DNA of 64,000 nt from Candidatus Curtissbacteria bacterium RIFCSPHIGHO2_12_FULL_41_17 (GCA_001774945.1 MFBL01000043.1:2782-66781), one strand, 5' to 3'. Numbered from the stretch's first letter, positions 5,769-39,826 are shown. Translations and numbers: made by a program. The notes: a model not told the origin generated them from the sequence alone.

Positions 5769-7457
5769 ATGTCAGAATCTATTAAGATAAACCTCATGCA
5801 CTTCAAAGAAAACTTTGATACGAGAAAAAAGAATTTGATTGCAATAATTTCAATTATTGTTGTTACAGTCCTGTTAATTAGCCTGATGTTTCCATTAAAA
5901 AATCAAACAGCAGGTGATGATTATGCGTACGCTTATTCAGTTAAAAAGTCAATAGAAACTGGTCGACTGTACCTTTCTGAAGCAACTACAGCGGCTTTGG
6001 TTTTTCCGGTTCTTTGGGCAATTTTATTTTCTTCGTTTTTAGGCTTTTCATTTAAGACTTTACATATTTCTGTAGTATTTTTTTTACCCATCATTGCAAT
6101 AACAACTTATTTTCTACTAAAACAATTCAAATTAAAGCCACATTTAGCTTTTTTTGCATCACTATTTTTTATCTCAGTACCTTTTATTTTTCAATATGCG
6201 TTCACTTTTCTGACTGATATCCCTTTTTTAACATTAGAACTGTTAGTTTTGCTTTTTTTTGTCAGAGGATTAAAGGCAGATAAAAAAGGAGATCTATTTT
6301 TAGGTTCTATCTTTTCTGCTCTTGCTTTCTTAACAAGACAATTAGGACTCTTATTACCCTTGAGTGTTCTAGCTGCATATATAGTTACCTCCAGAATTAA
6401 TATAATTTCCAGAAAATATTTAAGTATTCTGGCAATCTCCGTACTGCCTGCGTTAACAGTTATCTTGTACATTTTAGTTTTTAGGGAAGGAACGGTGAAT
6501 CAATACATTTATGGCAAAAGAGTTTCCGAAACTATACATTCACTGCTTTTCGCACGATCTGCTTCCGTAGGACTTGAAGCATGGTCACGAATTATATACG
6601 TGGCTTTAGAATATTTTTGGCAAGCCTTAGGCCTTTTCTCACTGTTTGCCATAACAGTTATTGCCTCGAATTTCAAAAGATATTTAAGTAAAAAGGCTAT
6701 AAAATCTTTAATGTTAGCACTAATCGTCTTTATCGGCCTTGTACTTCTAGAAAAAATAGTCTATATGGAAAAAACCTATTTGGGTTTTCCGTTAGTGTTG
6801 TACAGGTATGAGAGTCTATTTCCGGTGCCTTGGCCTCATATATGGAAATACTTGGTCATGATAAGTTTTTTATTCGTAACAACAGAAAGTTTGTTAAACT
6901 TGAAGAACTTAAAATTTACAAGAACTGCTATCTTTCTTTTAACATCTTTTTTGCTTTTTCTCGGAATGAGTGCAATTGCTATCCCGTCTCATAAAAAATA
7001 CGTCATGTCCTTGTTGCCTTTCTTCCTAATTTACATCTGCTTATTATCCAAAAAGCTGAAAATTTCCGGACTTGTCGCCATACCAGTATTACTTTTTGTC
7101 CTAATCGACTCATTGCAAATGACAAAACTTAGATACGATACAAACGCACTTGCCCAGCAAAAAGGTCTTGAAATAGTTGGTAGAGGAATTGACATAGATA
7201 GAGTTCTGCCTAATCTGGAATATACATGGTCACTTTGGTATACAGTTGAAGATAAATATGCACAAGAGTTGAAAAAAGCCGGAGGTGATAAATTAACAGT
7301 AACATATCCCGTGACACCAGCCAACCAAGATTACCTAATTATTTCCAAGGAAAATATAAAATATGGAAATTTACCACAAAAATATTTATTTATCGAAAAC
7401 AGTCCATTTACTAGCTTATTTGTTTCTTCTTACCTTTTAACTATTAAAAAACTATGA
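5769..7457 (+). CDS. Polytopic membrane protein, probably a GT-C-fold (PMT/ArnT-like) glycosyltransferase. First of three tandem paralogs.
   Basis: Has an N-terminal TM helix followed by a DDYAYAYSV loop (DE-like motif) and more than ten hydrophobic segments. It shares blocks with the next two ORFs: TDIPFLTLE, LAFLTRQLG, FPVPWPHIWKY and SLQMTKLRYD. It also has a C-terminal soluble domain. Confidence 0.5.
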   Translation: MSESIKINLMHFKENFDTRKKNLIAIISIIVVTVLLISLMFPLKNQTAGDDYAYAYSVKKSIETGRLYLSEATTAALVFPVLWAILFSSFLGFSFKTLHISVVFFLPIIAITTYFLLKQFKLKPHLAFFASLFFISVPFIFQYAFTFLTDIPFLTLELLVLLFFVRGLKADKKGDLFLGSIFSALAFLTRQLGLLLPLSVLAAYIVTSRINIISRKYLSILAISVLPALTVILYILVFREGTVNQYIYGKRVSETIHSLLFARSASVGLEAWSRIIYVALEYFWQALGLFSLFAITVIASNFKRYLSKKAIKSLMLALIVFIGLVLLEKIVYMEKTYLGFPLVLYRYESLFPVPWPHIWKYLVMISFLFVTTESLLNLKNLKFTRTAIFLLTSFLLFLGMSAIAIPSHKKYVMSLLPFFLIYICLLSKKLKISGLVAIPVLLFVLIDSLQMTKLRYDTNALAQQKGLEIVGRGIDIDRVLPNLEYTWSLWYTVEDKYAQELKKAGGDKLTVTYPVTPANQDYLIISKENIKYGNLPQKYLFIENSPFTSLFVSSYLLTIKKL

Positions 7458-7520
7458 CACATGCTGTTCCAAAGAATCACCTTGACAACAATATCTTTAA
7501 ACATCATACGATTAGAATGA

Positions 7521-8255
7521 TTACTTTTTCGTCCCAAAACCGATAATCCATGCCCCGATTATGCTAGCTAGTGGTGTTGCAGCCAAAATATGATCAAAAA
7601 TATTATATATCGAAAGGAGTACCTCAGCCTTTTTATTTTCGAGGTATTTCATATTAATGCCGGAAATAATTTCGGTTTCAACATTAAAATCGAAACCTCC
7701 AAACACCTTCTCAATTTCACTAGTTGTCAGGAGCCTTTCATTTTCAGTTATGCCGACTCTTGTAGAAAAAGGTGAGCTTGGGCTTCTATATAACCAAAAA
7801 GCAGGATTATATTTATTTGGGTCGTAAGAGAAAAAATGACCTCCTGGCTTAAGTATCCTGGATGCTTCTTTGGCGACTTTTGAAAAGTCTGGAAAATGAT
7901 GTAATATCCCGGAGTAACAAATTAAGTCAACTGAAGCTGAAGGAAACCTTGTCTTTTCGATATCCCCAACTTCAAATTTTAAATTAGAATAATCTTGTTT
8001 AGCCCTCTTAATGCAGCCTTTGGAAATATCTAAACCGATAATCTCACTTTTTGGTAGTTCCTTTGCAAGTCTTGCCGTAAAAGCTCCGCTGCCGCAACCC
8101 ATGTCAATCACGTTTTTTATATCTGAAGACTTAAACTTTTTTTTCAAACGCGACAGAATTTTATAGTAGCCGCTATCATCAAATGCGTCATACCCGCCCT
8201 CGATATCAAATTTATCAAAAAACGTAACCTCTGCCTTTTTATTCTGGGCTGTCAT
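7521..8255 (-). CDS. Class I SAM-dependent methyltransferase.
   Basis: Carries VIDMGCGSGAFTARLA (motif I) and DLICYSGILHH. It is the only minus-strand gene in the first 25 kb. Confidence 0.65.
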   Translation of the reverse strand: MTAQNKKAEVTFFDKFDIEGGYDAFDDSGYYKILSRLKKKFKSSDIKNVIDMGCGSGAFTARLAKELPKSEIIGLDISKGCIKRAKQDYSNLKFEVGDIEKTRFPSASVDLICYSGILHHFPDFSKVAKEASRILKPGGHFFSYDPNKYNPAFWLYRSPSSPFSTRVGITENERLLTTSEIEKVFGGFDFNVETEIISGINMKYLENKKAEVLLSIYNIFDHILAATPLASIIGAWIIGFGTKK

Positions 8256-8348
8256 TGTGTCTTAAAATTTGCTTGGAAAAACCGCGTGTTATGTTGATTA
8301 TATGAAATTAACTGATATTATTACAACAGTTTACGGCCGCTAGTATTT

Positions 8349-10073
8349 ATGAGATACTCAATTATCCAAAAATTCCTGCTTCTTGTACTTGCCTACAAAA
8401 AGAAAACACTCCAAATGCTTAAGTCTGACAAAAATATTTACTTATTCCTATTGGCCGTTTTTTTTGTAGTCTTAACTATCATGTTGCCTTTTAAAGACCA
8501 GTTATTTTCTGAGGATTTTGCCTATGCTCAAAGCGTAAGACATTTTATTAATACTGGAGATTTAAAAATATCAGAAAGAGTAGTACCAACTAGTATTACT
8601 CATATAATTTGGGGAACGGTTGTTACAAAATTTCTTGGGCTTTCTTTAGCAAATCTCCATTTTTCTGTTGTGCTGCTTTTACCGTTTTTGCTTTTTGCGT
8701 TGTACAAATTATTTAGCTTAATTGGCTGCAATAAAGAAAAAAGTTTTATCTTCACAATATTTTTTTTCTCAATACCCTGGATATTACAGCTAAGCTATAC
8801 ATTTACGACGGATATACCATTTTTGATCTTAGAAGTTTTTGCAATACTGTTTTATATACAGGGATTTAAAGAGAATAAAACGACGAGTTTGTTGATTGGA
8901 TCAATATTTGCCTCTTTAGCATTTTTAACAAGGCAGTTAGGGATACTTTTGGCATTTGCCGCTTTTGTTACTGTCATTCTTAGCAGTAACAGCAAAAATC
9001 AAAAAATTAAAAATGCACTATTATCCTTAGGCATTCCTCTACTAACTCTTTTTTTGTATTTATGGTGGTTAAGTTTTCCTGAAAATAAAACCATCGCCCA
9101 ACTTAGCACGTATCGAGAGCTCAAAGAAACTTATTTTTATTCGTTTGCGCTTAATATTTTGATAGAGAATCTTGCAAGGATTATTCACACAACCTTAAAT
9201 CTGACCAGCCAAGCGTTAGGCTTATTATTTCCTATTATTTTATTGTTACTTTTAACTAACTTGAAAAGAGTATTTAATCTTGCGAATAAAAATAAACGCA
9301 GATTCACAGTTGCCACAATTGTTGCTGTAATTATCTATGCTATCGACATTATTAATTTCAGAAAAGAATACACTGTTGGTTTCCCGTTTAATATCTACCA
9401 ATATGAAAATCTTTTGCCAGTTCCTTGGGCACATATTTGGAAATATATAGTGTTAATTAGTCTCCCAATACTTAGCTGTACAATTTATCTACAATACAAA
9501 AATGTAATTAAACTTAACAATTATCAACGATTTATATCTTTATCCTTTGTTTTTTTAGCAATTCCAACAGTGATCCATGTTGCAAAATGGGATATATATA
9601 TAATTCCGTTTTTACCGCTCTCAATGTTATGGATTGCTAGTTCGACAAAAAAATTCACGCTAAATTTAAAACTTTCCTTGGTTGTTGTTTTAATATTGTT
9701 ATTAGATTCAGTGCAAATGACAAAATTAAGATATAACGAGTCAGCTCTCATATGGGAAAAAGCTATGAAATTAGTAGACAGCGGAATAAGTCCTGCCGAA
9801 ATTGACCCAAGTAACAATTTTGGCTGGTACTACTGGTTTTATTACGAAAAGTTGGCAAGCGATTCTATTAAATCTAACGACGGTAATAAGGATAAATCAG
9901 ACTACGGATTTGTTATAGCAAAACCCGACCTTCCCAAATATAGAATCTATACTGAAAGAATGATTCGTTATAGTAGCCTAAACACTACAAATTATAAAGT
10001 TCAAACGATTCCGCTTAGAAGTTTCTTGGTTAACTCGAAAATATATTTTATGCAACTTGATGAAAGATACTAG
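8349..10073 (+). CDS. GT-C-like polytopic membrane protein, second tandem paralog.
   Basis: Carries EDFAYAQSVRHF, TDIPFLILEV, LAFLTRQLG, LPVPWAHIWKY and SVQMTKLRYN, all collinear with 5769..7457. Confidence 0.5.
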   Translation: MRYSIIQKFLLLVLAYKKKTLQMLKSDKNIYLFLLAVFFVVLTIMLPFKDQLFSEDFAYAQSVRHFINTGDLKISERVVPTSITHIIWGTVVTKFLGLSLANLHFSVVLLLPFLLFALYKLFSLIGCNKEKSFIFTIFFFSIPWILQLSYTFTTDIPFLILEVFAILFYIQGFKENKTTSLLIGSIFASLAFLTRQLGILLAFAAFVTVILSSNSKNQKIKNALLSLGIPLLTLFLYLWWLSFPENKTIAQLSTYRELKETYFYSFALNILIENLARIIHTTLNLTSQALGLLFPIILLLLLTNLKRVFNLANKNKRRFTVATIVAVIIYAIDIINFRKEYTVGFPFNIYQYENLLPVPWAHIWKYIVLISLPILSCTIYLQYKNVIKLNNYQRFISLSFVFLAIPTVIHVAKWDIYIIPFLPLSMLWIASSTKKFTLNLKLSLVVVLILLLDSVQMTKLRYNESALIWEKAMKLVDSGISPAEIDPSNNFGWYYWFYYEKLASDSIKSNDGNKDKSDYGFVIAKPDLPKYRIYTERMIRYSSLNTTNYKVQTIPLRSFLVNSKIYFMQLDERY

Positions 10074-11718
10074 AAGCATTGCACTAATACTTTTAATAAG
10101 TGCCCTTTTTATTATACTCATGCTGCCATTGCAAAACAGCGTCTACAGTGATGATGTAGCTTTTTCTCAAAGTGTAAGACATTTGTTGCAAACTGGAGAA
10201 CTAAAAGTTTCGGAGTATACTGCTGCAAGTTCTATAAGCCATATTTTATGGGGGTCTCTATTCGCAAAGTTATTAGGATTTTCATTTACGTCACTGAATA
10301 TTTCCGTAATAGTACTTTTGCCGATCCTGCTTATTAGCTTTTATAAATTACTAAGGATAATTGGTGTCTCTACAGATAGAGGTTTCATCTTTACACTTTT
10401 TTTCTTTTCAATTCCCTGGATACCGTTTTTAACATACACATTCATGAGCGATATACCATTTTTAACCCTGGAAGTGTTAACAATCTTGTTCTATTTAAAA
10501 TACTCAAAAGATAAAAATGTCAAATACCTAACAGTCAGCCTGGTTTTTGCAAGCATTGCGTTTTTGGCAAGACAACTTAGCTTGGCACTCATCGCAGGTA
10601 TTGTAACTAGCATTTTATTAAACACAAAATTTTCTCTGAAAAGTGTAAAAAAAATGATCTTACCCCTTCTGATTCCACTGGTCACTATAATTTTTTATCA
10701 TATCTGGTTATCGGCGCCCGGCAATAAAACTATGCCTCAATACTTTTATGAAGATCAAATCAACGAAGTTTTAAAAAACTTCGTTCCGCTTACTAACATT
10801 TCTTTAAACATGCGCGTTTTGAACCTTTCTCTTTTTATGCATCGTACCCTTAATTACGCAAGCCAGGCGATGGGCTTACTGTTTCCGCTAATCTTTGTTT
10901 TAATTATTTCAAATATACCAAAAGTAAAGAGATTTATAAAAAGAAATTTTAGAATTATTATTTTTTCAACAACAGTAGCCGGATTGCTATACTTGCTGGA
11001 CGTTATTAATTTTAGAAAGGAATATTATGCCGGATTCCCACTTAACGAATACGAATACGAATCTTTATTCCCGATTCCATGGGCTCACATATGGAAATAT
11101 CTTGTAATCCTATCAATACCTTTTTGGTCTGTACTAATGGCAAAAACCTATACAAACGGATCGCAAAAAATAGACGCGCAAAAAAGATACCTTATAATTA
11201 CTTTTTTAGGTGTTCTCTTTATGACCGTGATTACTTTTCAGTCGTGGGATCGTTATGTACTTCCGTTGCTACCATTTGTGTTTATTTATTTAGCAAGAGT
11301 TACCAAGACATTAAAATTCAACTTATTAATATCAGTTCCAATCGTCGCATTATTTTTGATCGACGCTATTCAAATGACAAAATTAAGATATGATGAGGCC
11401 GGACTGCTTTACAAAATTGGGAATCAACTAGTACAGCAAGGAGCCGAACCTTCGACAATCGACTTAAACAGAGACCAGGGCTGGGATATCTGGTTCTATT
11501 ACGAGAAAGGAGTTCAAGAGCAAATTAAAGAAGCAAACGGAGATAAAACTAAGATAAATTTCCGCGTGTACCCCTTACCCAAAAAGAATATAAAATATGG
11601 CATCTACACGGACAGGATGATTAAATATCAAACCTTGAATATCGACGAAGATAGTTTCTTTATCATTCCTTTTAAAAGTTTGTTCGTCTCTTCAAAATTA
11701 ACATTTGTAAATTACTGA
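10057..11718 (+). CDS. GT-C-like polytopic membrane protein, third tandem paralog.
   Basis: Carries DDVAFSQSVRHL, SDIPFLTLEV, IAFLARQLS, FPIPWAHIWKY and AIQMTKLRYDE. It overlaps the previous paralog by 17 bp. Confidence 0.5.
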   Translation: MMKDTRSIALILLISALFIILMLPLQNSVYSDDVAFSQSVRHLLQTGELKVSEYTAASSISHILWGSLFAKLLGFSFTSLNISVIVLLPILLISFYKLLRIIGVSTDRGFIFTLFFFSIPWIPFLTYTFMSDIPFLTLEVLTILFYLKYSKDKNVKYLTVSLVFASIAFLARQLSLALIAGIVTSILLNTKFSLKSVKKMILPLLIPLVTIIFYHIWLSAPGNKTMPQYFYEDQINEVLKNFVPLTNISLNMRVLNLSLFMHRTLNYASQAMGLLFPLIFVLIISNIPKVKRFIKRNFRIIIFSTTVAGLLYLLDVINFRKEYYAGFPLNEYEYESLFPIPWAHIWKYLVILSIPFWSVLMAKTYTNGSQKIDAQKRYLIITFLGVLFMTVITFQSWDRYVLPLLPFVFIYLARVTKTLKFNLLISVPIVALFLIDAIQMTKLRYDEAGLLYKIGNQLVQQGAEPSTIDLNRDQGWDIWFYYEKGVQEQIKEANGDKTKINFRVYPLPKKNIKYGIYTDRMIKYQTLNIDEDSFFIIPFKSLFVSSKLTFVNY

Positions 11719-13613
11719 TGAAATTAATCAGAGCCAATTTTCTCATTATTACCATCTTTTTCGGTGTATTAATTACTCTCAGTCTTCCGCATATATTCCG
11801 CTATCTTGCACTCGGTTCAAAATACACGACGCTCATCATAAGCGGGCCATCAGCAACTGCGACAAGCTGGGAAGAAACTTATACTTACGCAACGGAAGCA
11901 AACAGAATTAAAAACAACCAGCCAATCAATGACCCGTATATTTATGAATACAGAAACAAGCCTTCTCCATTAATCTCCGAATTAGTTCCGTCTGTTCTTT
12001 TGGGAGTACCCGCCAAAGTATTATCAACATCTTTAGTTTTTATACTGGCAAAAATCTTCGTTTTACCGCTTACAATTTTCGTATGGTACCTTATAGCCAG
12101 ACAACTTGGCTATTCAAAAAAAGCCAGTATTTGCGCAGCCCTAACAAGTTTTATCTTACAGAAGCTTTTTGTCTACATTCCATATTTTCCTAAAATATTC
12201 TCTTACGAATTTGATGGCTACCTTGAAGCCCAAAGAATTTATTTTCCCCTGATATCCTCGTTTATTACATCAATCACTATCTTATTTATTTTAAAAATTC
12301 TGGATAATAGATTCCCACGGCCTAAAGGCCGTGGTTCTCTAGTCTTCGCTCAAAATTCGCTTCATCTTCGGCAGATACAGTGCCATGCGGTCCTCGTCCT
12401 TCGGACTGCGGGCCTAAAATGCTGGAGTTTTTTCGCTCAGAATAAAAAAATGAAGTATGTACTATTAGCCGGAATATTACCGGGCTTACTTTTTTATACC
12501 TACTTTTTTGCATGGACCTTAATTTGGTCGTCACTAATATTATTTTTAATCAGTTTGAAAATATCCGGCTGGCACATCCAGGCAAAAAAATTACTTGCTG
12601 TTCTGGCAGTTGGATTATTAATCGGCCTTCCTTATTTTCTAAACTTACTGTTCTTTTATCAAAATCCATCGAGAAGCGATTTCATTTTAAGGACCATAAG
12701 TTTCCCAATAATTGATTGGAATATACCGATAATATTCAGGTTTTTGACATTTTTTTGTTTGATTACTTTTTTTGGTAAAAAATGGTTAAAAAGTCCCGAC
12801 AAAAGATTATTAATCTTAATCTACTTAACGGCGGCATTTTTGCCCTTAGTCTCAAAAATAATTTTTCAGGCGGATAACCAAACAGACCATTGGTACGAGC
12901 GTTTCTTATACCCATTATCAACCTTTTTACTTGTTCTTTTTGCGGCCGACATAAAACAACTAGGCCTCAAAATCAAAAATTTTATTTTTCTGGCATTTTT
13001 ACTTTTGGCAATTCTGAAGTTTGATATTAGTATTTACAACGAGATCAAAAGACCATCCGAATATTTCACAATTGGTCTACCCCGACTAGATCTTTATCAT
13101 TGGATGGCCAAAAATCTGCCAAAAAACAGCGTAGTTGGATCACTAAGTTTTAAGGAAGAAATCTATTTGACGGCATACACGCCTCTCTATGCTTATCTGC
13201 CTCAAGCATACAAAACAATAGCGCCGACAAAAGAAATTACGGATAGATATTTATTTCTGGCTCGCCAAATCGGTGTTGGTCCCGAATTTATAAAACAAGT
13301 CTTTATCATGCCCGACCAGTCTTACAGTAACCCTGATTCAATTCAGGCAAAGGACGGTAACGGCTTTATGGTTCTTCTCGGTATCGCCAACCATTTCGAC
13401 AAGTTTCCATACCCGTCTCACTACAAAATACAACAAGATTTAGTCCAGTCGCTCAACAAATCGATAAATCAAATCGGCCGTCTTGATTATTTATTGATAG
13501 GCCCATTAGAAAGAGAAGCATCTCCAGATTTTGCCAAAAACACCAAATGCCAGCTTATATTCCAAAATGTCACATACAAACTCTACCGCTTCCACAATTG
13601 TTCTGTCCGGTAA
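11718..13613 (+). CDS. Large polytopic membrane protein of unknown function. It contains an atypical GC-rich in-frame insert at ~12312-12433.
   Basis: A 631-aa ORF with many hydrophobic helices. The internal segment RFPRPKGRGSLVFAQNSLHLRQIQCHAVLVLRTAGLKCWSFFAQNKK is basic and non-hydrophobic, and its codons are GC-rich, unlike the flanks. Confidence 0.4.
   Translation: MKLIRANFLIITIFFGVLITLSLPHIFRYLALGSKYTTLIISGPSATATSWEETYTYATEANRIKNNQPINDPYIYEYRNKPSPLISELVPSVLLGVPAKVLSTSLVFILAKIFVLPLTIFVWYLIARQLGYSKKASICAALTSFILQKLFVYIPYFPKIFSYEFDGYLEAQRIYFPLISSFITSITILFILKILDNRFPRPKGRGSLVFAQNSLHLRQIQCHAVLVLRTAGLKCWSFFAQNKKMKYVLLAGILPGLLFYTYFFAWTLIWSSLILFLISLKISGWHIQAKKLLAVLAVGLLIGLPYFLNLLFFYQNPSRSDFILRTISFPIIDWNIPIIFRFLTFFCLITFFGKKWLKSPDKRLLILIYLTAAFLPLVSKIIFQADNQTDHWYERFLYPLSTFLLVLFAADIKQLGLKIKNFIFLAFLLLAILKFDISIYNEIKRPSEYFTIGLPRLDLYHWMAKNLPKNSVVGSLSFKEEIYLTAYTPLYAYLPQAYKTIAPTKEITDRYLFLARQIGVGPEFIKQVFIMPDQSYSNPDSIQAKDGNGFMVLLGIANHFDKFPYPSHYKIQQDLVQSLNKSINQIGRLDYLLIGPLEREASPDFAKNTKCQLIFQNVTYKLYRFHNCSVR
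12312..12433. other. GC-rich structured element (possible small RNA or miniature insertion) embedded in-frame in the ORF.
   Basis: The span is roughly 50-60% GC against a ~33% background. There is a perfect 8-bp hairpin ccacggcc-taaa-ggccgtgg (12315..12334). A second hairpin gtcc-ttc-ggac lies at 12396..12406. A T6 run follows at 12428..12433. Confidence 0.3.
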
Positions 13614-13689: not shown

Positions 13690-14784
13690 ATGATTCCCGT
13701 TATTGACCTGAAAATTACGGAAAAGCAAAACAGAGCGATAAAAAAACGCGTTTCAAAAGTCATAGATTCCAGGTCTTATATTTTGGGAAAAGAGCTTGAT
13801 GCTTTCGAAAAAGAATTCGCCAAAATCACTAAGGTAAAAAAAGCCATTGGGGTAGGTAATGGTACCGACGCCCTGAGACTTTCTCTTAGAGCTTTGGGTA
13901 TTGGCGCCGGTGACAAGGTTTTAACAGTGTCTCTCACATCGCCTTTTACAGCTATTGCCATAATAGAAGAAGGGGCGGTACCGGTTTTTTGCGATGTGGA
14001 CGAAAATACATGGACAATTGATCCTCGCGACATCATCAAACGGATAGACAAAAAAGTGAAAGCCATCATTCCTGTGCATCTTTATGGCAATCCGTCAGAC
14101 ATGAAATCAATAAATAAAATCGCAAAAAAATTTAATCTAAAAGTCGTAGAAGATGCCTGTCAAGCCCATTTGGCTCAAATAGATAATATTTTAGTTGGAA
14201 ACTGGGGAGATGCAGCAGCCTTTAGTTTTTACCCGACAAAAAATCTCGGCGCGATGGGTGATGCCGGAGCGGTAGTAACCAATAACGGCCAGCTTGCAAA
14301 GCACATTAGAATTTTAAGACATGGCGGTCAAACAAAAAGGTTTTGGCATGCGTACAGTGGGTTCAACAGCAGGCTTGATGAAATTCAAGCGGCAGTTTTA
14401 AGAGTAAAATTGAAATCACTAAAAAAACACAACACCAGCAGGTCAAAAATTGCTCGCACATACAAACAAGAATTAGCGAATCTCCCGATTTCATTTCAGC
14501 AAGCAGTTATTGGCGGAAAATCGGCAAACCACTTATTCGTGATAAGAGTAAAGCAGCGCGATAAGTTACATAAATATTTGCTCCAAAACGGGGTCGCAAG
14601 CGACATATATTACCCTTACCCGGTCCACGTCCAACCGGCATTTAAGAAGTTTTCGTCAGGCAGTCTGCCAATCACCGAAAAACTTACAAAAGAGTTGCTC
14701 GCTCTGCCATTTTATCCGAATCTCTCTGCGCCGGACCAGAAAAGGGTAATTCGAGCGATAAAAAGTTTCTTTAAAAATAACTAG
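13690..14784 (+). CDS. DegT-family PLP-dependent sugar aminotransferase.
   Basis: Carries FSFYPTKNLGAMGDAGAV with the PLP lysine. The N-terminal region (ILGKELDAFEKEFA...DKVLTVSLTSPFTAIA) fits the family. Confidence 0.8.
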   Translation: MIPVIDLKITEKQNRAIKKRVSKVIDSRSYILGKELDAFEKEFAKITKVKKAIGVGNGTDALRLSLRALGIGAGDKVLTVSLTSPFTAIAIIEEGAVPVFCDVDENTWTIDPRDIIKRIDKKVKAIIPVHLYGNPSDMKSINKIAKKFNLKVVEDACQAHLAQIDNILVGNWGDAAAFSFYPTKNLGAMGDAGAVVTNNGQLAKHIRILRHGGQTKRFWHAYSGFNSRLDEIQAAVLRVKLKSLKKHNTSRSKIARTYKQELANLPISFQQAVIGGKSANHLFVIRVKQRDKLHKYLLQNGVASDIYYPYPVHVQPAFKKFSSGSLPITEKLTKELLALPFYPNLSAPDQKRVIRAIKSFFKNN

Positions 14785-14831: not shown

Positions 14832-15809
14832 ATGCGTGTAAAACAAAAAATAATTGGAGTCACCGGTGCAGCCGGTTTCATTGGTAGTCATTTATGCGAG
14901 AAATTATTAAATAATGGTTACAAAGTAATAGCTGTCGACAATTTGTCAAAAGGCAGTAAAAATAACATACGAGATTCCCTGAAAAACAAGAGTTTTAATT
15001 TTTTTAAGGCTGACATAAGCAATCCAAAAACAGCAAGGAAGTCATTTGCCAACGTAGACGGTGTTGTCCATCTAGCTGCCTCTAAAATCCCAAGGTACGG
15101 AGGAAGGCTGGAAACTTTACTTGTAAACACCGAGGGAACAAAAAATATCTTAGAGGCGATAAAAAATAAGAAATCAAAGTTCATCTTTGCTTCGACGCCA
15201 GATGTCTACGGCAAAAACCCCAAAATACCATTTTCGGAAGACAGTGATCTTACTGTCGGTTCACCGGAGGTGGCAAGATGGGCCTATGCGGCTTCTAAAA
15301 TTTTTGACGAGCATCTTTGTTTTGGGTATTGGGAAGAATATAAAGTTCCTTTTGTCATTCTACGTCTATTTGGAGTTTATGGTCCGCGTCAGCACAGAAG
15401 CTGGTGGGGAGGGCCGCAAGCGCTTTTTATAGACAAGATCATAGCCGGAAAAGAAATTGAGATCCATGGTGATGGTCACCAGACAAGAACTTTTATTTAT
15501 ATCGATGATGTTGTTGAAGCACTCATTAAATCTATATCGTCCGAAAAAGCGAATAACCAAATAATTAACATCGGTACAACGCATGAAATTTCCATTATCG
15601 AACTTGGAAAATTAATTTCTAAACTTCTCCAAAAACCGCTCAAGATTAAAAAAGTACCGTATCGGTCTTTTACAGGCAAGAAATATGAAGATGTGAGAAG
15701 AAGGACTCCGACAATTAAAAAAGCTAAAGAGTTATTAAATTGGGAGCCAAAAGTCTCATTGGCTGAAGGACTTAAAGAAACAATAAGTTGGCACTTAAAA
15801 ACTAAATGA
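14832..15809 (+). CDS. UDP-glucuronate decarboxylase / UDP-xylose synthase-like SDR (ArnA C-domain-like).
   Basis: Carries GVTGAAGFIGSHL, YAASK and DGHQTRTFIYIDDVVEAL, which resembles the UXS signature G-x-Q-T-R-S-F-x-Y-V-x-D. Confidence 0.65.
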   Translation: MRVKQKIIGVTGAAGFIGSHLCEKLLNNGYKVIAVDNLSKGSKNNIRDSLKNKSFNFFKADISNPKTARKSFANVDGVVHLAASKIPRYGGRLETLLVNTEGTKNILEAIKNKKSKFIFASTPDVYGKNPKIPFSEDSDLTVGSPEVARWAYAASKIFDEHLCFGYWEEYKVPFVILRLFGVYGPRQHRSWWGGPQALFIDKIIAGKEIEIHGDGHQTRTFIYIDDVVEALIKSISSEKANNQIINIGTTHEISIIELGKLISKLLQKPLKIKKVPYRSFTGKKYEDVRRRTPTIKKAKELLNWEPKVSLAEGLKETISWHLKTK

Positions 15810-16537
15810 TTTACTTTCTAATTCCCTCTTTTAACGACTGTGAAAACTTTGCCGATTTGCTTAAAAATATTGCAAAGACCATAAAGCGCCAGAGATATAA
15901 AGTAACTATTGTCAACGACGGCTCTACAGATAAAACAAAGCAGGTTATAAAGGAGCTTTCAAAGAAATATCCGGTCACAATGATTGGCTATGATAAAAAC
16001 AGAGGACCGGGATACGCTTTTAAATTTGGTTTTAATTATTTAATCCCAAGACTCAAAGCCGATGATTTAGTAATAACTATGGAGGCGGACAACACTGCAG
16101 ATTATTTTATTCTTAAAAGAATGATTCAAGAATCCAATAACTTCGATGTGATACTAGCATCACCATATTCCGGGGCAGGGGCTTTTTTAGGCATAAATTT
16201 ACAAAGAAAAATTTTAGGACACGTTGCCAGTATTTTAGATCGCTTTATCTTTAGATTAAAAAACATTAAAACGTACTCGTCATTTTATAGAATTTACAGG
16301 GTAGCGATTCTTAAAAAGGCGAAAAAAGTATATGGTGATAAATTCATTACCGAAGATGGCTTTTCGTCTGTTATAGAGATTTTGATCAAGCTTGCAAAAG
16401 TTGACGCAAAATTTACCGAAGTTCCAGCAGTCGTTGACTGGAGGAGTCGGAAGGGTAAAAGCAAAATGAAAATTACAAAAACAATAACTCGCCATCTAAG
16501 ATTATACCAAGAATATCTTCAAGGAAAATATAACTAA
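15806..16537 (+). CDS. GT2 polyprenyl-phosphate sugar synthase (DPM1/ArnC-like, soluble form).
   Basis: Has the VTIVNDGSTDKT motif, and MEADNTADY provides the DxD-like region. Its start overlaps the upstream stop (ATGA). Confidence 0.6.
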   Translation: MIYFLIPSFNDCENFADLLKNIAKTIKRQRYKVTIVNDGSTDKTKQVIKELSKKYPVTMIGYDKNRGPGYAFKFGFNYLIPRLKADDLVITMEADNTADYFILKRMIQESNNFDVILASPYSGAGAFLGINLQRKILGHVASILDRFIFRLKNIKTYSSFYRIYRVAILKKAKKVYGDKFITEDGFSSVIEILIKLAKVDAKFTEVPAVVDWRSRKGKSKMKITKTITRHLRLYQEYLQGKYN

Positions 16538-17589
16538 TGAAAACGAAAATAGTTTCAATAGTTGGTGCGAGACCGAATCTTATTAAATTGGCAGCTTTAC
16601 ATCCTAGACTTCGCAAAGATTTCAACCATATCATAATCCATACAGGACAGCATTATGATTTAGAGCTTTCAAAACATTTTTTCGATGAGCTGGATATTCC
16701 AGAGCCCAACTATAATCTACATGTCGGCTCAGCGACTCATGGAATCCAAACAGCTAGAATCCTTTCTGGATGCGAAAGGATTCTACTGACTGAAAAGCCC
16801 TTTACTGTCTTGGTCTATGGGGATACAAATTCGACATTGGGAGGGGCTCTAGCTGCTGCAAAATTGCGTATCCCGACTGTGCACATTGAATCCGGGATGA
16901 GAAGTTACGATCGGTCAATGCCCGAAGAGATAAATAGAGTAATTACGGATCATATTTCATCATTATTATTGTGTCCTTCTGCTTCTGCTGCCAAATTTCT
17001 TAAAAAAGAAGGAATTACCAAAAACGTATTTTTTACTGGCGACGTTATGTACGATATTTTTTTAAAAATTAAGCCCAACCATCTGGTTTTGAAAAGATTT
17101 AATTTGAAGCCCAAAAGTTACTATTTTGCAACTGTCCATCGCCAAGAAAATACAGACAACCTTCAACGTCTTCGTCAAATATTTAATATTTTTGAAGCTT
17201 TAGATAGACCAGTTATTTTGCCAATCCATCCCAGAACTAGGAAAGCTCTTTCTCGAATTAAAATAAGTCTAAAAAATACTAAACTTGTAGAACCTGTCAA
17301 ATTTTCCGATAATATTGCCCTTGAACAGAATTCTTCGGTGATATTGACAGATTCTGGCGGCATTCAAAAAGAAGCCTATTGGTTAAGAATTCCCTGTCTG
17401 ACTCTACGAAATACTTCGGAATGGCTCGAAACAGTTAAAAGCGGGTGGAATCATATTACGGATTTAGATAGTGAACTTATCTTAAAATATACGACACAAA
17501 GGGTTAAACAATCTAAAACACACCCCCAATATTATGGAAAGGGCGATTCTGCTAAAAAGATAATCGATGTCATCAAGAAATGGCTATGA
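16537..17589 (+). CDS. UDP-N-acetylglucosamine 2-epimerase (WecB/WbpI family).
   Basis: Carries IVGARPNLIKLAAL, HTGQHYD and HIESGMRSYDRSMPEEINRVITDH, all family hallmarks. Confidence 0.8.
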   Translation: MKTKIVSIVGARPNLIKLAALHPRLRKDFNHIIIHTGQHYDLELSKHFFDELDIPEPNYNLHVGSATHGIQTARILSGCERILLTEKPFTVLVYGDTNSTLGGALAAAKLRIPTVHIESGMRSYDRSMPEEINRVITDHISSLLLCPSASAAKFLKKEGITKNVFFTGDVMYDIFLKIKPNHLVLKRFNLKPKSYYFATVHRQENTDNLQRLRQIFNIFEALDRPVILPIHPRTRKALSRIKISLKNTKLVEPVKFSDNIALEQNSSVILTDSGGIQKEAYWLRIPCLTLRNTSEWLETVKSGWNHITDLDSELILKYTTQRVKQSKTHPQYYGKGDSAKKIIDVIKKWL

Positions 17590-19403
17590 TAATTTGCGAT
17601 TTTGATGGTACAATTATTGACCCGTCGGAGAGACTTTACAAGGTTTATTCAAATTGCTGTTCTCTTCTTAAAATTAAACCATTATCTCAAAAAAGATTTA
17701 TAAATCTTAAAAGGTCAGGAAAGTCCGAAGTTGAGTTCATTAGTCCAGTAAAAGCTAGGGAAAAATACAGAAAAATTTTCAAGGAAAAAATAGAAGAAAA
17801 AAAATATTTAAGGTTGGACAGAATTTATCAATATGCAAAAGATTTCCTTGAGGATAATTATAAAAAAAATGAAATATTTTTAATGACTAATCGGCAAAAT
17901 AGAAAAAATCTGTTTTGGCAACTAGATTATTTGGAAATTAGAAAGTTCTTTCAAAAAATTATTCTTGCAAAAGAAGCAAACAAAAGTCTTCAATTTCTTA
18001 AATCACGGCATTTATACTTTATTGGTGACACAGAATTGGATATTAAGTTAGGGAGGAAATTATCTGCTTTCACAATTGCTGTAGACTATGGATTAAGAAC
18101 AAGGCGTTATTTGAAAAATTTTAAACCAGATAAAATTGTTTCCTTCCTCAAAGATATTAAATTTCCTACAGAAGACGTATTCATTCTTAAGACTTTGAAT
18201 AAAGGTCTTCAGCAGGTTAGAGATAGGACGGTTTTCATAGATTTGAGTAAAGAGCCTAGCCTATATGATTTGTTTAGAGTATTAAGAAAACAGCCTAAGA
18301 TGGTATTGATTAACGGGAAAGGATTTGTTGATCATTATGCCGTATTAGCGTCAGAGTTTGGGATTCCGCTAATTCCCGTACTTAAAAAAGATTCGCAAAG
18401 CGTCTTAAAGGTTTCCTCCCATACTATTCCAATTAAAAATAGTCATGTTATGGATCAAGACTCACAAGGCCAGCTTAAAACTGCTTCTAAATTAAAAATA
18501 AACCTTGGCAATAGCGAAATTCTTAAAAAATACCCTGAATTAGTTGAACTTAGCGACGGCATTGGTTTTTTGAGGACAGAATTTATACTTCTTTCTGTTC
18601 TAGAGGGTTTACATCCACAGTACTTTATCGATAAATTCGGGAAAAAGACATTGATAAAAAAATTCACAGTTGAAATGCTAAAGATAGTTTCAAAGTTCGA
18701 CAAAAAAAATAAACCGGTTTGGATACGTACGAATGATTTTTCAACAGATGAACTAAGACTGTTTAAATACGGAAATAGGTTCGAGAAAACGGAGCCTAAC
18801 CCCGCTCTTGGTTTCAGAGGAATAAGAAGAACTCTTGATGAGAAATTCTTATTAGAGGTAGAACTATCCGTATTCGATAATCTAATTAAAAATGGTATTA
18901 AAAATCTTGGCGTTTTTCCACCAATGGTTAGGTTCCCTGATGAATTCATTTCATTTGAAAAGATCATAAAAGAAAGATTTAAACATAAACTAAAGATAGG
19001 GTTGATGGTTGAAACGCCAGCTATTGCTCTGGCCTTTCACAACATAGTTAAAAAACTTGACTTTATGATATTTGGGTCCAATGATTTAACTCAATTCACT
19101 TTAGCTCTTGATAGGCAAAACCCGAATCTGGCGAAGTATTTCGATGGGAGAAATGAGTCGGTTATGTTCCTTTTCAATATCGTGATCGATTTGTGCAACA
19201 AGTTTAATGTCGAATCTTTCATTGGTGGTCAAGCTGCGAATGATTGGGAAACGGCCAAATTACTATTAAAACTTGGCATTTCCGGACTTTCTGTTTCACC
19301 TGACCCTTCTAGCTTTTCTAGAATGAGGGGCCTGATCTATAAATGGGAAAATAAACATAGTTTTTCTGTGAGTAAGCCAAGCTTTTCTGTGAATAAAAAA
19401 TGA
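17580..19403 (+). CDS. Fusion protein: N-terminal HAD-superfamily hydrolase domain plus a PEP-utilizing enzyme phospho-His swivel domain and a PEP/pyruvate-binding TIM barrel (Enzyme I / pyruvate phosphate dikinase (PPDK) / PEP synthase-like).
   Basis: HAD motifs are DFDGT (I), MTNR (II) and GDTELD (IV). The central VDHYAVLASEFGIPLIPV resembles GGRTSHAAIIARELGIPAV of Enzyme I (catalytic His). The C-terminal GIGFLRTEFILL and FGSNDLTQFTLALDR match PtsI GLFRTEFLYM and IGTNDLTQYTLAVDR. Confidence 0.65.
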   Translation: MAMIICDFDGTIIDPSERLYKVYSNCCSLLKIKPLSQKRFINLKRSGKSEVEFISPVKAREKYRKIFKEKIEEKKYLRLDRIYQYAKDFLEDNYKKNEIFLMTNRQNRKNLFWQLDYLEIRKFFQKIILAKEANKSLQFLKSRHLYFIGDTELDIKLGRKLSAFTIAVDYGLRTRRYLKNFKPDKIVSFLKDIKFPTEDVFILKTLNKGLQQVRDRTVFIDLSKEPSLYDLFRVLRKQPKMVLINGKGFVDHYAVLASEFGIPLIPVLKKDSQSVLKVSSHTIPIKNSHVMDQDSQGQLKTASKLKINLGNSEILKKYPELVELSDGIGFLRTEFILLSVLEGLHPQYFIDKFGKKTLIKKFTVEMLKIVSKFDKKNKPVWIRTNDFSTDELRLFKYGNRFEKTEPNPALGFRGIRRTLDEKFLLEVELSVFDNLIKNGIKNLGVFPPMVRFPDEFISFEKIIKERFKHKLKIGLMVETPAIALAFHNIVKKLDFMIFGSNDLTQFTLALDRQNPNLAKYFDGRNESVMFLFNIVIDLCNKFNVESFIGGQAANDWETAKLLLKLGISGLSVSPDPSSFSRMRGLIYKWENKHSFSVSKPSFSVNKK

Positions 19404-20476
19404 AAATGAAGATTTTAATAACAGGAGCAGGTGGTAGCGCCTCGATAGGACTTACACGTTGCCTAAAAAATTATTTTCCTAAGGCTAAAATTATCGGTGT
19501 AGAGTCAGATTTATTCAATTCAGCATTATCAGAAACAAATAGTACGTATCTTATCCCGCGGGCCAGTGACAAGGATTATATTAAGGTGCTCAACCATATA
19601 ATTCTAAAGGAGAAAATAGATTTTTTATATCCTCAAACCGATTCTGAAATTTCAGCTATAGCAAAGAATATTAGAAAAATTCAGTGTAAGACACTAATCC
19701 CTTCCTTTAAAATCATTTCAACTTGTCAAAACAAATATAAACTCAATAAACACCTATTTGCAAAAGGAATTCCTGTTCCCAAGACCATTCTTATAAAAAC
19801 ATCCAGTGACCTAAAAAATGCCACCAAGTATAAACTTTTTTGGCTAAGAAATGTTACAGGTGCCGGTGCAAAGGGCGCGTTTTTGGCGGAAAATTTTGAA
19901 CAAGCAATCTGGTGGATAAATTTTCAAAATGGTTGGGGCCACTTTACCGCATCAGAATACATGCCTGAGGATAACTATGGATGCGATTTACTTTTTGCTG
20001 GGGGGAAGCTCGTCTTCTCTCAAATCAAAAGGAGACTTGAGTATGTACTCTCAAAAGCAAACATCGTAGGAATAACTGGAACCACGGGCATTCTCGAGAC
20101 TGTCTCAACAAAATTCGACCTCAATGATATTTCTGAAAGAGCAGTGACTCTACTTGATAACAATATTTCAGGCGCTTTCTCAGTTGATATAAAGTGTGAC
20201 TCACTTTCAAAACCATATGTGACAGAGATAAATCCAGGAAGATTTCTATCATCCTCGATGCATTTATTCGCAGAAACTAAATTTCCTGCTCCCGCATTAG
20301 TAATTCTTGTTGCAAACGACCAAAAATTACCCTCTTTTCCCAAAAGAAATCCAATAAAAGGTGGTACCATCCTGATAAGACAACTAGATCGTAAGCCAGC
20401 GACAGTAAATCTGAAAAATCACAACAGATTAAGAAAAAAGTTTGAAAGAAAACATTATGTCAAATTAGAAACATGA
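19400..20476 (+). CDS. ATP-grasp domain protein (carbamoyl-phosphate-synthase-like ligase/kinase fold).
   Basis: Has an N-terminal Rossmann-like ILITGAGGSASIGL pre-ATP-grasp region. The central block KHLFAKGIPVPKT...GAGAKGAFLAENFEQA is ATP-grasp-like. It overlaps the upstream gene by 4 bp. Confidence 0.5.
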   Translation: MKMKILITGAGGSASIGLTRCLKNYFPKAKIIGVESDLFNSALSETNSTYLIPRASDKDYIKVLNHIILKEKIDFLYPQTDSEISAIAKNIRKIQCKTLIPSFKIISTCQNKYKLNKHLFAKGIPVPKTILIKTSSDLKNATKYKLFWLRNVTGAGAKGAFLAENFEQAIWWINFQNGWGHFTASEYMPEDNYGCDLLFAGGKLVFSQIKRRLEYVLSKANIVGITGTTGILETVSTKFDLNDISERAVTLLDNNISGAFSVDIKCDSLSKPYVTEINPGRFLSSSMHLFAETKFPAPALVILVANDQKLPSFPKRNPIKGGTILIRQLDRKPATVNLKNHNRLRKKFERKHYVKLET

Positions 20477-21459: not shown

Positions 21460-22733
21460 ATGCTGCGGTAATCGGATTAGGTTATGTAGGGCTACCACTT
21501 TCTATCAGGCTTGCTCAAACCGGTTTTGGAGTACTTGGTATTGATAAAGATCAAAAGAAGATTGAACTTTTAGGAAAAAATTTACTTCCTTTCGGTCTGA
21601 GAGAACCAAATTTGTTGAGTTTTTTTAAGCAAGCTCAAGTGAGTAAAAATTTAAAATTCACATCAACTTATGAAGAGATAAAAGATGTTGATATCATTTT
21701 CATCAGTGTTGATACACCAGTTGAAAAAAGACAACCAGATATCGCTTCTTTATTAGCGGCCACTAAGAGCATTGCAAAACATTTAAAAAAAAATCAGATA
21801 ATTGTCATTGAATCTACAGTTGCACCCAAAACAACTCAAGATTTAATTATTCCCCTACTTGAGAAGCTATCAAAGTTGAAGTTAAATCGAGACTTTTTCG
21901 TTGCGGTTGTTCCAGAAAGAATCCGTCCTAATTATATTTTTAAACAACTGACAACCTTGCCTAGAGTGATTGGAGTATCTGATCTTAGAATTAAGAAAGA
22001 ACTAAGAATAATTTATTCAAAAATAACTACTGGGAAGCTAAATTTTACAGACTTGGCTACCGCCGAAGTTGTCAAAACAGTAGAAAATGCCTATCGGGAT
22101 GTTAATATCGCCTTTGCCAATGAGATAGCACTTGCTTGCGAAGATCTAGGGGTAGACGTATGGAAAATCAGAGAACTTGTCAATAAGTCACCATGGCGAG
22201 ATATGCATAAACCAGGATCAGGGGTTGGCGGGCACTGCATTCCAAAAGATCCATGGCTTTTAGCGTCTTCTGTCAAAAAACACCAAATGAGGTTAATTGA
22301 AACAGCCAGAAGCATAAATGATAATATGCCTGCGCACATTTTTGCATTAGCGGAAGAAGCGCTCAAAGAAAAGAAAATCAAAATTGCCAGTGCAAATCTT
22401 GCCATACTCGGTTATGCATATGTTGGCAATTCAGACGACACCAGAAATTCTCCAACTGAATCGTTAATACAAATCCTAAAGAACAAAAAAGTTAAATATA
22501 AGGTTCATGACCCATACGTCAAAGATTTTTCAAATCACTCTGTAGAGATGACAGCAAAAGGGGCAGACGTTTTAATTATCATGGTAAACCATGACGTATA
22601 TAAAAAAATCAATTATAAAAAAGTTGCGAAAGTAATAAAAACGAAAATTATCATTGATGGCCGGAACTTGGTGCCGGCCGAACTTGTCAGAAAGTTGGGT
22701 TTTGTCTATAAGGGTGTTGGAAACACCAGTTAA
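21456..22733 (+). CDS. Nucleotide-sugar 6-dehydrogenase (UDP-glucose/GDP-mannose dehydrogenase family; WecC/WbpA-like).
   Basis: Carries MNAAVIGLGYVGLPLSIRLAQ, GVGGHCIPKDP with the catalytic Cys, and a C-terminal UDP-binding domain. Confidence 0.8.
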   Translation: MNAAVIGLGYVGLPLSIRLAQTGFGVLGIDKDQKKIELLGKNLLPFGLREPNLLSFFKQAQVSKNLKFTSTYEEIKDVDIIFISVDTPVEKRQPDIASLLAATKSIAKHLKKNQIIVIESTVAPKTTQDLIIPLLEKLSKLKLNRDFFVAVVPERIRPNYIFKQLTTLPRVIGVSDLRIKKELRIIYSKITTGKLNFTDLATAEVVKTVENAYRDVNIAFANEIALACEDLGVDVWKIRELVNKSPWRDMHKPGSGVGGHCIPKDPWLLASSVKKHQMRLIETARSINDNMPAHIFALAEEALKEKKIKIASANLAILGYAYVGNSDDTRNSPTESLIQILKNKKVKYKVHDPYVKDFSNHSVEMTAKGADVLIIMVNHDVYKKINYKKVAKVIKTKIIIDGRNLVPAELVRKLGFVYKGVGNTS

Positions 22734-30354: not shown

Positions 30355-30357
30355 TTA

Positions 30358-31602: not shown

Positions 31603-31603
31603 A

Positions 31604-39824: not shown

Positions 39825-39826
39825 AA

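Follow-up and report, generated by a model that had tools for sequence, protein, structure and literature searches.

The locus studied here raises the question of why a bacterium of the candidate phyla radiation (CPR) should carry three related membrane proteins in close succession, and what these proteins do. It lies in a 64,000-nucleotide stretch of DNA (the window) from Candidatus Curtissbacteria bacterium RIFCSPHIGHO2_12_FULL_41_17 (MFBL01000043.1:2782-66781), and the three plus-strand genes, here called A (5769-7457), B (8349-10073) and C (10060-11718), occupy positions 5769-11718. The envelope chemistry of CPR bacteria, or Patescibacteria, is almost unknown because few of these episymbionts have been cultured. 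Our analysis indicates that A, B and C are old paralogs with the fold of GT-C-type membrane glycosyltransferases. They probably move polyprenyl-phosphate sugars to a surface glycan or protein outside the membrane, and each paralog would have its own site or step.

An initial annotation, made from the sequence alone, described A, B and C as paralogs, and pairwise comparison bears this out. In tblastn alignments B and C are 41% identical (E 4e-139), A and C 36% (E 4e-88) and A and B 33% (E 1e-68), each time collinearly and over nearly the full length, and this similarity is far above chance. Within the window, tblastn revealed no further close paralog. All five conserved blocks quoted in the annotation were recovered in a three-way alignment: DDYAYAYSV / EDFAYAQSVRHF / DDVAFSQSVRHL, TDIPFL(T/I)LE, (L/I)AFL(T/A)RQL(G/S), (F/L)P(V/I)PW(P/A)HIWKY and (S/A)xQMTKLRY(D/N). 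The acidic pair of the first block is DD50-51 in A, ED55-56 in B and DD in C. The genes had been called consecutive, which holds among plus-strand genes, but a minus-strand methyltransferase gene (7521-8255) lies between A and B. The reported lengths of 562 and 574 amino acids (aa) are correct for A and B. For C, 552 aa is more likely than the reported 553 aa; its start is most likely ATG 10060 rather than TTG 10057, because the 552-aa form stands in NCBI and UniRef and agrees with the orthologs. B and C overlap by 14-17 nt, as read from the sequence, and all three reading frames are intact.

B is 100% identical to A3D81_01025, labelled hypothetical protein, of Candidatus Curtissbacteria bacterium RIFCSPHIGHO2_02_FULL_40_..., and A, C and the next gene downstream, D, correspond to A3D81_01015, A3D81_01030 and A3D81_01035. 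The window therefore derives from the metagenome-assembled genome of a groundwater CPR bacterium (Microgenomates). NCBI labels these proteins hypothetical, and UniRef names all four 'Glycosyltransferase RgtA/B/C/D-like domain-containing protein', so the family assignment of the trio is already present in automatic UniProt annotation. A metagenome-assembled genome labelled 'candidate division WWE3 bacterium' (A3H26_01430 and A3H26_01440) also has records that equal B exactly and A to at least 90%. Either one contig was binned into two CPR genomes or the island is common to two lineages.

Pfam PMT_2 (PF13231, clan GT-C) matched A, B and C with 32.3, 32.8 and 30.7 bits, above the gathering threshold of 26.1 bits. 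An alignment of 30 A/B/C homologs was used for profile work and as input for an AlphaFold2 model of B (pLDDT 89.6, pTM 0.90), and A and C align with the modelled protein along their full length. In a Foldseek search of this model against PDB, ArnT (5f15/5ezm) gave the top matches, with E values of 2e-6 and 2e-5 and TM-scores of 0.44-0.48. The next matches were STT3/PglB/AglB, Pmt1/Pmt2/Pmt4, DPY19, ALG9/ALG3, AftD, AftB and EmbA/B/C. All matches at a Foldseek probability of 0.96 or more were GT-C-type except one glycosylphosphatidylinositol (GPI) transamidase chain. The PMT_2 scores of all three proteins and the fold of B thus uphold the GT-C relationship.

The PMT_2 scores lie near the threshold and a sequence-only search of PDB gave no significant relative, as might be expected if A, B and C were transporters, Wzy/WaaL-like polymerases or ligases, or flippases that resemble GT-C enzymes in hydropathy only. 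This is most improbable. More than 30 GT-C chains matched B with a Foldseek probability of 1.00, whereas major facilitator superfamily and other transporters did not exceed 0.25, with a TM-score of about 0.12, and an acidic first-loop motif of GT-C type is among the conserved residues. Profile searching also returned about 5,000 relatives (4,998 cluster representatives at E <=1e-3, 984 at E <=1e-30, among 1.84 billion). Close homologs are few, 38, and their Pfam annotation is PF13231 or none. The trio therefore belongs to a large family though its close relatives are few.

The PMT/ArnT/Stt3-type architecture ascribed to the trio at first stands as far as the GT-C fold and PMT_2 are concerned, but not as membership of GT39, GT83, GT66 or GT53 specifically. 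Pfam PMT (PF02366) did not match A, B or C even at E <=1, whereas E. coli ArnT scores 211 bits, and the same scan reported no MIR domain. The fifth extracytoplasmic loop (EL5) of the three proteins has only about 23 residues, compared with the large luminal loop 5 of GT39. Pfam STT3 did not match A, B or C, the WWD motif is absent from these proteins as well as from D and the more distant genes E and F described below, and the likeness of B to STT3/PglB/AglB is at fold level only (TM-score about 0.40). Pfam Arabinose_trans gave no match for A, B or C, the TM-score of B normalised to the Emb targets is only 0.19-0.22, and the three proteins have half the Emb length. NCBIfam gave no equivalog-level name for A-F. 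The trio may be called ArnT/Rgt-like in working, yet it should not be filed under GT39, GT83, GT66 or GT53.

The topology was read from the helices of the B model together with hydropathy and charge. B has a K/R-rich N terminus, a first transmembrane helix (TM1) at residues 28-45, a long first loop that contains ED55-56 as well as two interfacial helices, 12 more transmembrane helices and a small C-terminal alpha/beta domain of about 100-115 residues on the same side as the acidic motif. The more than ten helices and C-terminal soluble domain of the initial annotation are, in this model, 13 helices and this domain. The [DE]D motif lies 9-10 residues past TM1, and D56 (B numbering), inside [DE]D-x-A-[YF], is invariant in the 30 homologs. 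In A, B and C the frequency of K+R per residue is 0.27-0.33 in cytoplasmic loops and 0.07-0.10 in outside loops. The motif is predicted to be extracytoplasmic, as had been proposed, with the N terminus in and the C-terminal domain out, because of the 13-helix order and the positive-inside rule. This is similar to ArnT, in which 13 transmembrane helices are accompanied by juxtamembrane helices of the first periplasmic loop and by a C-terminal domain in the periplasm (PMC7801869), and an acidic first-loop motif is typical of GT-C enzymes (PMC7801869; PMC11127046).

At 50 positions one and the same residue is conserved to 90% or more in each of the three orthogroups described below, and only one of these positions lies in a cytoplasmic loop. 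Almost all of them are found in the first loop (EL1), EL2 (TD-IPFL-LE), EL3 (R195, Q196), EL5 and TM10 (GFP..Y.YE..P.PW..IWK), in nearby helices, in the C-terminal domain or where TM13 ends (D..Q..KLRY). Since the conserved positions are nearly all on the outer side, the functional face would be the outer one. A, B and C all retain 22 family-invariant columns, including D56, R195, Q196 and K459, which suggests that all three paralogs are likely to be catalytically active.

The array had been taken to end at 11718, but it continues with D (11718-13613, plus strand, 631 aa), whose start shares one base with the stop of C (TGATG). This arrangement suggests translational coupling of the two genes. 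Neither Pfam nor NCBIfam gave a match for D. Its AlphaFold2 model (pLDDT 87.5) gave AftA (8if8) as the top Foldseek match (E 1.5e-6), followed by STT3, DPY19, PglB and ArnT. The motif WEETYTYA stands past TM1, and in an hhalign comparison with the A/B/C profile (E 0.0026) the acidic motifs are aligned. D is directly 3' of C on six related contigs (L001-L003 and L008-L010), and only 19 close homologs were found. According to the models, the array would comprise four GT-C genes, three in one family and one in another, and D is a candidate for a new GT-C family.

Gene copies in relatives show how old the trio is. A neighbour-joining tree from Kimura-corrected p-distances (200 bootstraps) contains three orthogroups, with bootstrap values of 100% for A and for C; the B clade takes in a divergent branch of L002 type. 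Identity within groups is 53-64%, well over the between-group values. Copy number and gene order were read from seven metagenomic contigs. The order A, methyltransferase (minus strand), B, C, D is found in the window and in L001, L002 and L003, and the order methyltransferase (minus strand), B, A, C, D in L009 and L010. L008, which begins at a contig end, has methyltransferase, B, C and D. In the more distant L004 the subfamily has one member, after which come a protein resembling D (24-28% identity) and a PMT_2 protein of E type; L005 has at least one copy beside GT2 and GT4 genes. A scan of genome contigs for relatives found one Saccharibacteria locus only (L007, a 5.9-kb contig), with one match. 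The trio is thus present in several relatives and a single copy in more distant ones. Because there are three orthogroups, and because the trio is retained in relatives with different gene order, the triplication is older than the divergence of these Curtissbacteria and has outlived a rearrangement. Recent tandem duplication is ruled out by the tree and the synteny.

The same data bear on whether the copies are redundant, or whether one or two copies are in decay or lack catalytic activity. Redundancy is frequent among tandem duplicates, and B in the window is about 6 residues shorter in loop EL4 than C and some B orthologs. Redundancy or decay is nevertheless very unlikely, given the low identity between paralogs (33-41%) compared with that within groups, the separate orthogroup of each paralog in several genomes and its survival through the rearrangement, the intact frames, and the presence of every family-invariant residue in all three. 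Of the 15 group-specific conserved positions, 7 lie in EL1 and 5 in the C-terminal domain. These data weakly support sub-functionalisation of the paralogs as plausible, because 12 of the 15 positions are in the regions where specificity would be expected. The initial suggestion of sub-functionalisation therefore gains from three old orthogroups that keep the invariant residues and diverge in EL1 and the C-terminal domain, although this support is indirect only.

The gene between A and B encodes a class I methyltransferase dependent on S-adenosylmethionine (7521-8255, minus strand, 244 aa; Pfam Methyltransf_31/11/25, E 1e-23 to 1e-25). A hydropathy peak at residues 223-241 suggests that its hydrophobic C-terminal segment is likely to be a membrane anchor. 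It is head-to-head with B, in divergent orientation, in six of six related loci (L001, L002, L003, L008, L009 and L010), and it stays beside B even where A has moved. A scan for promoters and terminators found no more than in shuffled sequence (28 vs 32 expected and 4 vs 4.7, respectively), so operon boundaries rest on orientation and overlaps only.

Such close packing of genes could mean that A, B, C and D do not act independently but make up an obligate hetero-oligomeric GT-C complex, as in Pmt1-Pmt2 and EmbA-EmbB; the trio would then reflect the assembly of a complex and not differing acceptor specificities. Stop and start codons overlap between B and C and between C and D in the window, and between B and A, A and C, and C and D in L009. 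B, C and D occur on every sufficiently long related contig, A too wherever its position is readable, and the paralog heterodimers Pmt1-Pmt2 (6p25) and EmbA-EmbB (7bvf) are among the structural matches of B. However, overlapping codons are common in compact CPR operons and are no proof of physical interaction. In the window, L001 and L002, A belongs to a transcription unit of its own, with a convergent gene downstream. The full catalytic signature in all paralogs speaks for independent enzymes, but it fits a complex of active subunits equally well. An obligate complex is a possibility that we consider rather unlikely; it is compatible with the proposed transfer of polyprenyl-phosphate sugars and overlaps it.

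A conserved block of sugar-precursor genes follows D. It opens with a DegT/DnrJ/EryC1-type sugar aminotransferase (13690-14784, plus strand; Pfam PF01041, E 1e-109), which has the same place in L001-L003, L009 and L010. The next gene encodes a nucleotide-sugar dehydratase, decarboxylase or epimerase of the short-chain dehydrogenase/reductase (SDR) type (14832-15809, plus strand; Pfam Epimerase, GDP_Man_Dehyd), with NCBIfam likeness below cut-off to LegB, the ArnA C-terminal domain and UXS. It is followed by a GT2 protein resembling dolichol-monophosphate-mannose synthase (DPMS) (15806-16537, plus strand, 243 aa), which is a candidate polyprenyl-phosphate sugar synthase for the donor. Its best PDB match is the Pyrococcus enzyme 5mlz (E 1.8e-16, residues 4-233), with weaker matches to ArnC and GtrB and weak NCBIfam likeness to PpgS, ArnC and PgfS; the gene is syntenic in L001-L003. 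A non-hydrolysing UDP-GlcNAc 2-epimerase (WecB/WbpI-like) is encoded at 16537-17589 on the plus strand (NCBIfam TIGR00236, 277 bits, cut-off 210).

Further components are encoded in the second half of the window. A GtrB/ArnC-type GT2, a polyprenyl-phosphate glycosyltransferase (47766-48740, minus strand), matches PDB GtrB 5ekp over its full length (E 3.4e-68) and ArnC (1e-29), and hydropathy peaks indicate two C-terminal transmembrane helices. Its score with the NCBIfam PgfS model is 235 bits, under the cut-off of 500. A second DPMS-like GT2 (44069-44794, minus strand, 241 aa) adjoins F and matches 5mlz (E 1.6e-25) and GtrB/ArnC (about 1e-11), with NCBIfam likeness below cut-off to PgfS and to dolichyl-phosphate hexose transferase. 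A small membrane protein of the GtrA family (55360-55770, plus strand; PF04138 GtrA_DPMS_TM, 88.2 bits vs 26.1) is a candidate polyprenyl-phosphate-sugar flippase. An ABC-2 exporter of TagGH/Wzm-Wzt-like type (57492-59083, minus strand; ATPase 57492-58274, permease 58301-59083; Pfam ABC_tran and ABC2_membrane), with NCBIfam likeness below cut-off to TagH, Wzt and Wzm, is a candidate exporter of the acceptor polymer. The GT2 at 29647-30354 was rejected as a lipid-donor synthase and is an ordinary Leloir GT2.

Three candidate synthases, a candidate flippase and the GT-C proteins A-D are thus encoded within one 64-kb island. A polyprenyl-phosphate-sugar synthase, a flippase and a GT-C enzyme form an established three-component route of extracytoplasmic glycosylation (PMC11127046), and the same logic of synthase and GT-C enzyme serves streptococcal protein O-glycosylation by PgfS/PgfM1 and GtrB/PgtC2 (PMC12041528). 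Paralogy, fold, predicted topology, the retained residues, the age of the triplication and the co-occurrence with D, the methyltransferase and the GT2 are shown here; in the following scheme the lipid-linked donor and its sugar, the acceptor and the way in which the paralogs share the work are inferred. Cytoplasmic enzymes of the island (DegT, SDR, WecB, UDP-sugar 6-dehydrogenase and others) would make unusual nucleotide sugars, a DPMS-like or GtrB-like GT2 would put a monosaccharide on polyprenyl phosphate, and the GtrA-family protein would flip the lipid-linked sugar to the outer face. A, B and C, together with the neighbouring D, would then hand the sugar to an acceptor outside the membrane. 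This acceptor would most likely be a surface glycan delivered by the TagGH/Wzm-Wzt-like exporter; Ser/Thr-rich surface proteins are the alternative. With a common catalytic core and differences around the active-site loop and the C-terminal domain, each paralog may serve its own acceptor position or a successive step.

Among known systems, ArnT (GT83; PDB 5ezm/5f15), the undecaprenyl-phosphate-L-Ara4N:lipid A transferase, resembles B in fold and size (about 550 aa). It shares with the trio the 13 transmembrane helices, an N terminus inside and a C-terminal alpha/beta domain outside, an acidic [DE][DE]xxYA-type motif right past TM1, and a match to Pfam PMT_2 (37 bits). The arnB/arnA/arnC setting of arnT is resembled by the DegT aminotransferase, SDR enzyme and GT2 near the trio. 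ArnT differs in its strong match to PF02366, in the identity of only 8-9% in the structural alignment and in being one gene compared with three paralogs and D here. Lipid A is, to our knowledge, not expected in CPR bacteria. RgtA, RgtB, RgtC and RgtD of Rhizobium leguminosarum, with their GT2 protein RgtE, are in the same Pfam/InterPro family as the trio by automatic annotation. The Rgt paralogs reportedly use one polyprenyl-phosphate sugar from a GT2 and each modify a different acceptor position; they would therefore be a direct precedent for sub-functionalisation of A, B and C. The Rgt enzymes differ in acting on the lipopolysaccharide core and lipid A of a Gram-negative bacterium, and they are likened to the trio by annotation.

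In mycobacteria, embCAB is a set of tandem paralogous GT-C genes, and together with AftA-D it is a precedent for dividing acceptor sites or steps, with AftA, EmbA and EmbB acting on arabinogalactan. EmbC-EmbA-EmbB (GT53) and AftA-D act outside the membrane on a polymer exported by Wzm/Wzt and take a polyprenyl-phosphate monosaccharide as donor. The structural matches of B include Emb proteins, AftA, AftB and AftD, D is matched best by AftA, and a Wzm/Wzt-like exporter is encoded in the window. The Emb proteins are longer, however, with about 1,050-1,100 aa and carbohydrate-binding modules compared with about 550-575 aa for A-C, and no decaprenyl-phosphoribose pathway genes were seen in this window. 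The Gtr-type and GT136 pentofuranose systems modify a glycan outside the membrane after its polymerisation (PMC11127046). All three component types of a Gtr system (GtrA flippase, GtrB GT2 and GtrC-type GT-C) are encoded in the window, but the components here lie 36-47 kb from the trio, whose own neighbour is the DPMS-like GT2 lacking transmembrane helices, and a Gtr system has one serotype-specific GT-C compared with several here.

A further precedent is the Pgf system of Streptococcus mutans, which has no outer membrane; an operon encodes the GT2 PgfS, the epimerase PgfE and the GT-C enzymes PgfM1 and PgfM2 (PMC12041528). In this operon a synthase and an epimerase are joined with more than one GT-C enzyme to glycosylate outside the cytoplasm, a combination similar to that of the window. 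PgfM1 and PgfM2, however, are of the YfhO family (PMC12041528) compared with the PMT_2-type A-C, and the Pgf acceptors are proven proteins.

The Pgf system also leads to the possibility that A, B and C are protein O-glycosyltransferases, similar to PMT, PgfM1 or PgtC2, that modify Ser/Thr-rich regions of proteins which are secreted or anchored in the membrane, for example pilins or S-layer proteins, and not a polysaccharide or glycolipid. Each paralog would then prefer a protein or sequon of its own. The PMT_2 family takes its name from protein mannosyltransferases, Pmt1/2/4 and DPY19 turn up in the structural search with B, and the Gram-positive route of GT2 and GT-C has an example with two GT-C genes in one operon in S. 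mutans (PMC12041528). The island also encodes a nonulosonic-acid pathway (NeuB, CMP-transferase, PseB/PseC-like enzymes), and nonulosonic acids are often found on pilins and flagellins. Against protein acceptors are the lack of a PF02366 match and of a MIR domain in the Pfam scan at E <=1, and the best structural matches, which are the lipid A-modifying ArnT for B and the glycan-priming AftA for D. The island has a polymer exporter of TagGH/Wzm-Wzt-like type and several GT4 and GT2 chain builders, and no Ser/Thr-rich target gene was found in the window. We regard a dedicated role in protein O-glycosylation as doubtful, though worth keeping in mind.

Several points weigh against the proposed transfer of polyprenyl-phosphate sugars by A, B and C. 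The PMT_2 scores exceed the threshold by only 4-7 bits, and the ArnT match of B, with its modest TM-score of 0.44-0.48 and large root-mean-square deviation, is a likeness at fold level. When PDB sequences were searched with the profile of the 30-sequence alignment, no GT-C protein was found, only chance matches to G-protein-coupled receptors at E >=0.15, and kinship to the solved GT-C enzymes is therefore visible by fold only. An hhalign comparison of the A/B/C profile with E. coli ArnT was not significant (E 0.51); it sets DDfAYAQSVR on PDETRYAEISR of ArnT, which is a hint of motif correspondence. The A/B/C subfamily is known from sequence and models only. The group-specific positions are few (15), and the A group consists of five sequences only. 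The GT2 beside the trio has no transmembrane helices and scores far under every NCBIfam equivalog cut-off, and the GtrB-like GT2, the GtrA protein and the ABC exporter, 36-47 kb away, are linked to the trio only by the common island. No gene in the window identifies the acceptor.

A bolder possibility, which we offer as speculation, extends the role of the locus from decorating a glycan to building one. The conserved module (the methyltransferase and A-D) might form, along with E, perhaps F, and the three candidate synthases, an extracytoplasmic multi-GT-C assembly line for an undescribed CPR envelope polymer of amino, uronic and methylated sugars, with B, C and D as a translationally coupled hetero-oligomer and D as founder of a new GT-C family. 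Mycobacterial arabinan synthesis would be an analogue, as the polymer is built there rather than merely decorated.

Current concepts are unchanged by these data, since GT-C systems with several paralogs (Emb, Rgt, Pgf and PMT) are well known. What is new is an old, conserved GT-C trio with a Pfam-less GT-C partner in a CPR lineage, and an unusual density of GT-C genes in one island. A literature search found nothing specific on GT-C enzymes or protein glycosylation in CPR bacteria. At least five GT-C enzymes and three candidate synthases of lipid-linked donors would serve extracytoplasmic glycosylation in this Curtissbacteria lineage, with sugar-nucleotide genes taking up more than 60 kb. The triplicated GT-C set, retained through rearrangement, provides testable genes for the cell coat and host attachment. 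If an activity is shown, both the A/B/C subfamily and the Pfam-less D family could enter CAZy as new GT-C families.

As judged from its gene content, the entire 64-kb window is a glycan island, with a GC content of 33-40%. E (23856-25373, plus strand, 505 aa) is a distant fifth PMT_2-type GT-C (29.1 bits) that has the motif ADEEGHF past TM1 and no C-terminal soluble domain, and it is 44% identical to the third GT-C of L004. Two polytopic proteins with 7-8 transmembrane helices and no family match are encoded at 22733-23872 and 25375-26505 (minus strand). F (44805-46514, minus strand, 569 aa) has about 11 transmembrane helices and a C-terminal soluble part, as judged by hydropathy, with NDEAIY past TM1. 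No Pfam or NCBIfam model matched F, and hhalign with the A/B/C profile gave E 0.004 over the PMT_2 core, so that F is a possible sixth GT-C. The island may encode six or more GT-C-type enzymes.

The island also encodes chain builders of the GT4 and GT2 families, no fewer than seven aminotransferases of DegT type and numerous SDR enzymes, as well as a UDP-sugar 6-dehydrogenase, a GFO/IDH/MocA oxidoreductase, a formyltransferase, a C-methyltransferase and RmlD. Among the sugar-precursor enzymes of the window only WecB passes the NCBIfam cut-offs. The genes for DegT, SDR, GT2, WecB-like epimerase, GFO/IDH/MocA oxidoreductase, UDP-sugar 6-dehydrogenase and formyltransferase led us to consider a precursor route similar to Ara4N or WbpABEDI, but we do not claim one. 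Downstream of WecB, an unusual 607-aa protein (17580-19403) has a haloacid dehalogenase (HAD)-type hydrolase fused to the C-terminal, phosphoenolpyruvate (PEP)-binding domain of PEP-utilising enzymes, and is followed by an ATP-grasp protein (19400-20476). L002 has a hexapeptide acetyltransferase at the position of the fusion, within a WbpA/B/E/I-like gene set. The fusion and the ATP-grasp protein may point to a diamino-uronic sugar whose substituent is derived from pyruvate or is an N-acyl group other than acetyl.

A nonulosonic-acid set of pseudaminic or legionaminic type extends over 28018-40801 (minus strand) and includes a NeuB that carries a SAF domain, a formyltransferase, a CMP-sugar cytidylyltransferase, a GNAT-family protein, DegT aminotransferases and a PseB-like dehydratase; a PseC-like enzyme is also encoded in the island. 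HisF/HisH-like genes (31604-33148) are embedded in this set. Genes of this kind occur in amidino-sugar pathways. At 50334-53333 (minus strand), inside the sugar island, a thiamine-diphosphate enzyme (651 aa) is encoded beside a dehydrogenase of the Ldh_2 family.

D of the window carries an in-frame inserted element of about 135-143 nt (44 codons) at 12306-12448 (plus strand), which is absent from D orthologs in the alignment. The element is GC-rich and contains a perfect 8-bp hairpin, CCACGGCC-TAAA-GGCCGTGG, and a UUCG-capped stem. The z-score of its RNA fold is -3.7, and it matched no Rfam family. In the model of D, residues 199-241, which correspond to the insertion, have a pLDDT below 50. 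A copy about 93% identical was found in another metagenome contig (L011, about 1772-1912) between unrelated flanks, and the 32-nt core of the element, TGCGGTCCTCGTCCTTCGGACTGCGGGCCTAA, recurs in five or more further contexts (L012-L022). The insertion resembles a small structured element, mobile or dispersed and similar to a miniature inverted-repeat transposable element, that landed in a loop of D and left the frame unbroken.

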